From Escherichia coli (GTDB lineage Bacteria; Pseudomonadota; Gammaproteobacteria; Enterobacterales; Enterobacteriaceae), in the NCBI RefSeq assembly GCF_048403405.1, contig NZ_CP183129.1: a DNA stretch of 64,000 nucleotides; one strand, 5' to 3'. Below are positions 45,540 to 46,194 of this stretch, in pieces. How positions within the stretch are numbered: the first letter of the stretch is position 1; each line of letters starts with the position of its first letter. The notes beneath the pieces are model-generated. The model worked only from the letters and a program-made list of their open reading frames with translations. It did not search any database and was not told where the DNA came from. The position numbers and the translations under genes are program-made.

Positions 45540-45806
45540 ATGGATATTAACAACAAAGCCCGCATTCATTGGGCATGCCGCCGTGGTATGCGCGAACTCG
45601 ATATTTCAATCATGCCGTTTTTCGAACATGAGTACGACAGCTTAAGCGATGACGAAAAACGCATCTTTATTCGTCTGCTGGAATGTGACGATCCGGACCT
45701 GTTTAACTGGCTGATGAATCACGGTAAACCGGCCGATGCAGAACTGGAAATGATGGTCCGACTCATCCAGACACGGAACCGGGAACGTGGTCCTGTGGCA
45801 ATCTGA
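45540..45806 (+). CDS. sdhE: FAD assembly factor SdhE (YgfY/CptB), 88 aa
   Basis: 88 aa [62 protein letters not shown]...; RGxxE motif. Confidence 0.9.
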
Positions 45807-46194
45807 TTTGCGCGTCTCCTGGCGCGCACAGTGGCTTTCCTTGCTGATTCATGGGCTGGTTGCCGCTGTTATTTTACTCATGCCCTGGCCGCTCAGTTAC
45901 ACCCCGTTATGGATGGTGTTACTTTCGCTGGTGGTGTTTGATTGCGTTCGCAGCCAGCGACGCATTAATGCTCGCCAGGGGGAAATTCGCCTGTTGATGG
46001 ACGGGCGTTTGCGCTGGCAAGGGCAGGAGTGGAGCATCGTCAAAGCGCCGTGGATGATTAAGAGCGGCATGATGCTGCGTTTACGTTCTGACAGCGGTAA
46101 ACGGCAACATTTATGGCTGGCAGCCGACAGCATGGACGAAGCCGAATGGCGGGATTTACGGCGGATTTTGTTGCAACAAGAGACGCAAAGATAA
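45787..46194 (+). CDS. ygfX: inner-membrane protein YgfX (CptA), 135 aa
   Basis: 135 aa, two TM segments; start overlaps sdhE 3' end by 20 nt. Confidence 0.85.

Follow-up and report, generated by a model that had tools for sequence, protein, structure and literature searches.

The sdhE-ygfX (cptB-cptA) gene pair of Escherichia coli: overlapping junction, protein architecture, and the toxin-antitoxin question

The gene pair and its overlapping junction

The window analyzed here is the whole stretch of 64,000 nucleotides (nt) from an Escherichia coli contig (NZ_CP183129.1, assembly GCF_048403405.1), and the subject of this report is a pair of overlapping genes located within it, sdhE (ygfY, cptB) and ygfX (cptA), whose coordinates are collected in Table 1. 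It is near-certain that the locus is the E. coli sdhE-ygfX operon, which has already been described, so that neither its presence nor its arrangement is new. In the genomes compared, the pair behaves as a fixed housekeeping operon and not as a mobile or addictive element.

SdhE matches the Pfam family Sdh5 (PF03937) with an E-value of 5e-26 (90.8 bits against a cut-off of 27) and, along residues 1–88 of 88, the NCBIfam SdhE equivalog NF008130 (E 1e-59, 198.4 bits against a cut-off of 120). YgfX matches the Pfam family Cpta_toxin (PF07254) with an E-value of 1e-49 (168.5 bits against a cut-off of 27.3); its residues 2–131 align to profile positions 1–132 of 133, that is, to the full length of the profile. 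The same family was matched in a Pfam scan by all 46 diverse relatives of YgfX. The RefSeq coding sequences in E. coli genomes with 100% identity are sdhE and 'protein YgfX', with the identical 20-nt overlap. As the matches to curated families are strong and the RefSeq annotation agrees with them, a chance match is not an issue for this gene pair. The gene identities, the sizes of the two products, and the extent of the overlap had been proposed in an earlier note on this DNA, and all of them are confirmed by the open reading frames (ORFs), the raw sequence, the family matches, and RefSeq. The CptA/CptB label applied there is historically accurate, since this is the same pair as named by Masuda et al. 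2012.

The region 45300–46400 shows 95–100% DNA identity to 5425 of 5426 complete E. coli genomes, with a median of one copy per genome, and 5425 of 5426 places are chromosomal. The GC content of the two genes is normal (0.49 and 0.55, compared with 0.52 for the window). Residue 103 of YgfX is serine in the present strain and glycine in many database sequences, a minor substitution.

Table 1. Features of the sdhE-ygfX locus, with positions given in the numbering of the window.
Feature	Position	Strand	Remarks
Divergent ygfZ-sdhE intergenic region	45298–45539		242 nt; ygfZ (minus strand) ends at 45297, sdhE starts at 45540
sdhE (ygfY, cptB)	45540–45806	+	ATG start, 88 residues, TGA stop; ORF list and raw sequence
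RGxxE motif codons of SdhE	45582–45596	+	R15-G16-M17-R18-E19; read from translation
sdhE/ygfX overlap, 20 nt	45787–45806	+	GTGGTCCTGTGGCAATCTGA; GTG start of ygfX plus sdhE C-terminal G-P-V-A-I-stop
ygfX (cptA), inner-membrane protein	45787–46194	+	GTG start, 135 residues, TAA stop; ORF list and raw sequence
Predicted transmembrane hairpin of YgfX, codons	45820–45972	+	two model helices with a short PWP-containing loop; hydrophobic segments in translation
C-terminal part of predicted PH-like cytoplasmic domain of YgfX, codons	45973–46191	+	six model beta-strands and a capping helix
GC-rich hairpin	46198–46227		7-bp stem TGACGGC/GCCGTCA; within the 39-nt gap of convergent ygfX and fldB

The reading frame of ygfX is +1 relative to that of sdhE, and its GTG start codon is located 17 nt upstream of the sdhE TGA. 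The junction was compared across genomes in a scan anchored on SdhE, the best 80 loci of which come from 80 species, all of them Enterobacterales (Escherichia to Yersinia, Serratia, Dickeya, Erwinia, Photorhabdus, and Xenorhabdus); the counts for the junction and for synteny rest on the 79 loci that are not cut by a contig end. In every one of these 79 loci ygfX follows sdhE with an overlap of exactly 20 nt, a GTG start, and the +1 frame. The conservation of the GTG in 79 of 79 species makes it the credible start codon. The alternative start at Met32 (ATG at 45880) was rejected, since it would delete the first transmembrane (TM) helix and is not accompanied by a Shine-Dalgarno-like match, while the GTG is kept throughout.

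The anti-Shine-Dalgarno pairing 5' of the GTG is weak, reaching at best about -4 kcal/mol. No special RNA structure was found at the junction (minimum free energy of -40.5, versus -37.3 ± 3.9 for shuffled sequences), and no occlusion of the ygfX start site (accessibility of 0.37, versus 0.42 ± 0.09 for shuffled sequences). No Rfam family scored above its gathering score in a scan of 44000–47500. The GTG start, the weak Shine-Dalgarno pairing, the position of the start inside the sdhE ORF, and an overlap that is strictly conserved suggest that translation of ygfX is probably coupled to that of sdhE. The six-codon tail of sdhE that hosts the ygfX start probably forms a disordered appendage of SdhE, as the chain in PDB entry 6B58 spans residues 6–84 of the query and residues 84–88 are left unstructured in the predicted model.

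Proteins in metagenome and Logan collections that appear as SdhE-YgfX fusions (166–217 residues, 86–100% identity; P0003, P0004, P0006, P0007, P0009, P0012, P0013, and P0021) were considered as candidates for a natural fusion or a programmed frameshift. Both were rejected: the fusion junctions vary, lying in the overlap or before it, and nearly all of the proteins are singletons. From their sequences, they look like the product of single-base insertion or deletion errors merging the two frames.

Architecture of SdhE and YgfX

SdhE matches the PDB entry 1X6I (YgfY) with an E-value of 8e-59, as well as 6C12 (E 4e-58) and 6B58 (E 2e-51), both deposited as the flavin adenine dinucleotide (FAD) assembly factor SdhE. 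In an AlphaFold2 model of an artificial SdhE-YgfX fusion, the SdhE half folds into a five-helix bundle (residues 6–13, 18–34, 37–48, 54–58, and 67–83), with a predicted local distance difference test score (pLDDT) of about 80–94. The columns of the RGxxE motif are invariant in the SdhE alignment (A3). According to published work, SdhE uses the RGxxE surface to bind the flavoprotein subunits SdhA and FrdA, to which it promotes the covalent attachment of FAD (PMC5293155, PMC5773532). Flavinylation is reduced in ΔsdhE, and the role of the motif is explained by the FrdA-SdhE structure, in which G16 of SdhE touches the FAD-binding histidine of FrdA (PMC5773532). The E. coli ΔygfY strain is viable, loses succinate dehydrogenase (SDH) activity and growth on succinate, and phenocopies sdhB and sdhC mutants (PMC5293155). 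In Serratia, SdhE is needed for the flavinylation of both SDH and fumarate reductase (FRD) (PMC5042078).

The AlphaFold2 model of YgfX, built on a 46-sequence alignment, has a pLDDT of 95.6 and contains, in order, a strand (2–8), two long helices (12–31 and 36–62), six strands (65–112), and a C-terminal helix (118–134). The two helices bear out the description of YgfX as a protein with two TM segments. The N-terminal strand is the sole strand of the model outside the C-terminal sheet, which it presumably joins. Together with the C-terminal 70 residues, it most likely forms a pleckstrin homology (PH)-like cytoplasmic domain in the predicted structure. The basic stretch RSQRRINAR after the second TM helix suggests, by the positive-inside rule, that both termini of YgfX are cytoplasmic. 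This modeled architecture, a membrane hairpin carrying a PH-like domain, is more in keeping with the role of an adaptor than with that of an enzyme-like toxin.

An acidic residue is conserved where the second TM helix ends on the cytoplasmic side, namely D52 in E. coli (within VVFDCV; the codons of residues 51–53 are at 45937–45945) and glutamate in most relatives (alignment A1), directly followed by the basic motif RSQRRI. Judging from the alignment, this combination of acidic and basic residues, placed at the membrane interface, could be of functional importance.

A Foldseek comparison of the YgfX model with the PDB gave nothing significant, and when the YgfX alignment was used as a profile against PDB sequences, only chance-level matches to connexins were obtained. 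None of the 46 family members matched the Pfam families named bPH at E-values up to 1, and Cpta_toxin was the only family matched consistently. Both proteins are under purifying selection, with YgfX diverging much faster than SdhE: the median identity to the E. coli protein is 66% for YgfX and 85% for SdhE, and the ratios of non-synonymous to synonymous substitution rates (dN/dS) are about 0.12 and 0.05, respectively.

Genomic context and distribution

The RefSeq gene order around the pair is bglA, yqfB, trhA, ygfZ (minus strand), sdhE, ygfX, fldB (minus strand), xerD, dsbC, and recJ. Among the Enterobacterales loci, a divergent ygfZ precedes sdhE in 78 of 79, at a median distance of 249 nt, and a convergent fldB follows ygfX in 67 of 79. 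A horizontal-transfer island was rejected as an explanation of the locus because its base composition is normal and its synteny is conserved. In Kluyvera genomosp. 3 YDC799 (CP022114.1, L037:4248-4700; L numbers denote individual loci), two frameshifts split ygfX over three frames beside an intact sdhE; either ygfX is a true pseudogene there, next to a functional sdhE, or the frameshifts stem from long-read assembly errors.

In an exhaustive HMMER search the YgfX family proved to be small, with 135 representatives at 50% clustering, and all recovered loci have a bacterial gene context. Among the remote homologues, 11 distinct gene contexts were compared, and in 9 of them ygfX lies directly downstream of sdhE. 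The overlaps in these remote pairs are 14, 19, 20, 26, and 29 nt (with YgfX 22–37% identical to the E. coli protein), and the overlap is never lost there. The surroundings of the pair vary and include fldB-xerD-dsbC-recJ, nadB-rpoE-rseA, pmbA-like and queG-like genes, and sdhA-sdhB; the E. coli-type gene context is retained where YgfX is 27–36% identical. In one remote GC-rich lineage (L006:1-3447, JGI metagenome 3300032157) the genes are ordered sdhA-sdhB-MAPEG-sdhE-ygfX, all in one direction, with an overlap of 29 nt and an ATG start. This gene order links the sdhE-ygfX pair directly to a succinate dehydrogenase operon.

The two exceptions are loci with a solo ygfX, having no sdhE within about 3 kb. 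In one (L004:1322-1759), ygfX follows a ketoacyl-synthase (fabF-like) gene. In the other (L008:3001-3444 and L009; CP152425.1, a 1.5-Mb genome) the order is ygfZ (minus strand), ygfX, nadB (minus strand), rpoE, and rseA, with a gap of 82 nt between ygfZ and ygfX; no SdhE-like ORF was found in this 6.4-kb locus. Judging from these homologues, YgfX may have some function that does not depend on SdhE.

On mobile elements the pair is virtually absent. Only 12 of 72,556 plasmid records match it, of which six, 4–5 Mb in size (the largest 5.4 Mb), are evidently chromosomes, and three, of 0.69–0.79 Mb, likewise represent chromosomes or parts of them that were deposited as plasmids. Among 50,697 phage records there are two matches, a 1.5-kb fragment and a 691-kb Salmonella contig, neither of which is a convincing phage genome. 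The pair has no match in the PADLOC library and none in the PHROGs library. Typical toxin-antitoxin (TA) loci are patchy in distribution, often multi-copy, and linked to mobile elements or islands, features that are not strictly defining; sdhE-ygfX displays none of this behavior. In a survey of E. coli TA systems, CptA_toxin was among the few 'toxins' with a prevalence of at least 80% in every sequence type studied (PMC10790755), which is as expected of a housekeeping gene.

Three small plasmid records (51, 59, and 157 kb, from Enterobacter hormaechei and Lelliottia) do carry sdhE-ygfX; these may be misassemblies.

In respect to the flanking DNA, the gap between ygfZ and sdhE presumably holds the promoter and the 5' leader of sdhE-ygfX; a scan of this gap for the sigma-70 consensus gave no match at the scan threshold. 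Downstream, the segment 46185–46245, which contains the GC-rich hairpin, folds with -19 kcal/mol (z = -3.3), and 0 of 200 shuffled sequences were as stable. The hairpin, which has no T-run, was not called by the terminator scan. It may be a shared transcript-end structure of ygfX and fldB, with a putative terminator function. The Rfam family naRNA4 is matched weakly in the trhA-ygfZ gap (44257–44333, minus strand; 23.8 bits against a gathering score of 59.5, E 0.29). This family derives from repetitive extragenic palindromic (REP) elements, and the segment, matched below threshold, may be a REP-type repeat. A similarly weak, below-threshold match to Rfam RT-4 is found inside ygfZ, at 45136–45241.

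Physiological role and comparison with known systems

The preferred interpretation, to which we assign a probability of roughly 0.7, is that of a chromosomal housekeeping bicistron in which YgfX is a membrane accessory partner of SdhE. The first step is established in the literature: SdhE, a small helical cytoplasmic protein, binds SdhA and FrdA and promotes FAD attachment, and is thus needed for full complex II activity. The ribosomes finishing sdhE would most likely deliver or unmask initiation at the GTG of ygfX, and such coupling would lock the output of YgfX to that of SdhE at a fixed, probably lower, ratio. With YgfX as an inner-membrane hairpin, its PH-like cytoplasmic domain would associate with SdhE close to the membrane, the site of complex II assembly. 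YgfX would thus most likely be a membrane-anchored accessory or adaptor protein and not a dedicated toxin, and the growth arrest under strong over-expression would be a side effect and not its physiological role. Whether YgfX acts as an adaptor is, within the housekeeping interpretation, a matter of roughly even odds. A more specific version would make YgfX a dedicated adaptor of complex II maturation, the PH-like domain docking SdhE or an SdhE-flavoprotein intermediate at the inner membrane, the 20-nt overlap setting the YgfX:SdhE stoichiometry, and the 'toxicity' resulting from titration of partners once the ratio is broken; this is offered tentatively, as a possible rather than a probable role.

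Several observations weigh against the accessory-partner interpretation. Over-expression of E. coli YgfX caused growth arrest and lemon-shaped cells, with inhibition of FtsZ and MreB polymerization and rescue by YgfY, as far as the work of Masuda 2012 is conveyed by its summary in PMC8621075. For the A. baumannii pair, over-expression of the toxin cut viability about 1000-fold and high induction of the antitoxin rescued it (PMC8132199). A two-hybrid assay with the Shewanella proteins showed no YgfX-YgfY interaction (PMC8621075). The Serratia ΔygfX mutation has no discernible effect on swimming (PMC5042078), so that the accessory role is one without a clear loss-of-function phenotype. The AlphaFold2 fusion SdhE-(GGGGS)6-YgfX, based on 54 paired sequences, folded in both halves without yielding a confident complex (predicted template modeling score, pTM, of 0.48; no predicted aligned error, PAE, was available). 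Finally, there are the solo ygfX loci described above.

The earlier note regarded the pair as a TA-like system in which the membrane partner perturbs cytoskeletal proteins and SdhE counteracts it. What holds of this is that the pair is so named and that toxicity upon over-expression has been published; as a description of the natural function it is weak in view of the core, single-copy, and syntenic nature of the locus, its near-absence from plasmids and phages, and the deletion and toxicity literature. A genuine type IV TA system (CptA/CptB) would have membrane-bound YgfX inhibit FtsZ/MreB polymerization and block division, with SdhE counteracting it without binding, and the overlap would see to it that synthesis of the antitoxin comes first and exceeds that of the toxin. 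The results of Masuda 2012, in the form in which PMC8621075 and PMC8132199 relay them, and those obtained with A. baumannii speak for such a system, as do the Pfam family name Cpta_toxin and the order of the bicistron, in which the antitoxin is upstream as in many TA loci. The support for toxicity is, however, limited to these two over-expression studies only, and the A. baumannii rescue required 5–10 mM isopropyl β-D-thiogalactopyranoside (IPTG) (PMC8132199). In Serratia, the Fineran group detected no TA phenotype and yet saw an interaction between the SdhE and YgfX proteins (PMC3985639), which would contradict the definition of type IV, where the antitoxin acts on the target of the toxin and the two proteins make no contact. 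The Shewanella YgfX is toxic neither to Shewanella itself nor to E. coli BL21, and it binds neither FtsZ nor MreB (PMC8621075). The Shewanella ΔygfYX strain resembles ΔygfY (PMC8621075); this resemblance, along with the viability of the E. coli ΔygfY strain and its sdh-like phenotype, argues against the expected feature that the loss of the antitoxin is deleterious. The function of SdhE has been independently proven by biochemistry, and SdhE is widespread beyond the taxa that contain YgfX, including eukaryotes (PMC5042078). There are also the solo ygfX homologues lacking a neighboring sdhE, the order-wide synteny, and the missing matches in PADLOC and PHROGs, and on balance we consider a type IV TA system unlikely.

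It is also conceivable, though in our estimation improbable, that the function of YgfX is unrelated to SdhE, for instance that of a small membrane sensor or regulator, and that the overlap is a matter of gene packing. In Serratia, deletion of ygfX lowers transcription of the prodigiosin operon (PMC5042078), which would be one instance of such a function. The solo ygfX genes beside fabF-like or nadB genes, the much faster evolution of YgfX than of SdhE, the low-scoring fusion model, and the negative two-hybrid result from Shewanella are all in agreement with it. The overlap could also persist passively, frozen by a dual-coding constraint, since 20 nt are shared by two frames and most changes there would harm one of the proteins. 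However, adjacency and overlap persist where YgfX is only 22–35% identical, and in contexts as different as fldB, nadB, pmbA-like, queG-like, and sdhAB, a persistence that is difficult to account for unless the two genes are functionally linked. The overlap of distant lineages varies between 14 and 29 nt and is never lost, thus it has been re-made and not merely frozen. A physical interaction of SdhE with the membrane protein YgfX has been reported in Serratia, where the two genes are co-transcribed (PMC5042078, PMC3985639).

The additions made here to what is known of the operon are modest: a 20-nt/GTG junction that is invariant across the order and spans 14–29 nt in remote lineages, the near-absence of the pair from mobile-element collections, and a confident model with a hairpin and a PH-like domain. 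They bear on an existing controversy and would come as no surprise to a specialist. Concrete handles on the physiological role of YgfX are offered by the overlap, which is invariant, and by the confident model; if the adaptor proposal is true, a textbook 'type IV TA system' would have to be re-filed as a pair of assembly factors. A caution for annotation also follows, as the name 'Cpta_toxin' and the TA databases lead pipelines and surveys (e.g., PMC10790755) to count a universal core operon as a TA system.

In comparison with known systems, the locus is the same as that of E. coli K-12, sdhE (ygfY, b2897)-ygfX (b2896) or cptB-cptA, from which it differs in nothing of substance. The sdhEygfX operon of Serratia sp. 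ATCC 39006 (McNeil/Fineran) has the same gene order as the E. coli pair, and the Serratia species sampled here (L061, L066, L067, L071, L072, L078, and L082) share the 20-nt overlap and the GTG start, although Serratia YgfX is only about 50–55% identical to its E. coli counterpart. Regulation by FlhDC and RsmA and the link to prodigiosin are Serratia-specific observations.

The defining type IV TA system of E. coli, CbtA/CbeA (YeeV/YeeU), resembles CptA/CptB in being bicistronic and in the reported targets FtsZ and MreB. CbtA/CbeA resides in cryptic prophages, is present in multiple copies (with ykfI and ypjF), and has a patchy distribution, whereas sdhE-ygfX is core, single-copy, and located off mobile elements. 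CbtA is soluble, unlike YgfX with its modeled membrane hairpin and PH-like domain, and YgfX, whose sole Pfam match is Cpta_toxin, has no sequence relationship to CbtA. With the membrane-anchored bacterial PH-like proteins of the bPH type, the likeness of YgfX is one of predicted fold only. We know of no YgfX-like partner in eukaryotes; their SDHAF2/Sdh5 shares with SdhE the PF03937 family, the RGxxE motif, and a role in the covalent flavinylation of complex II.

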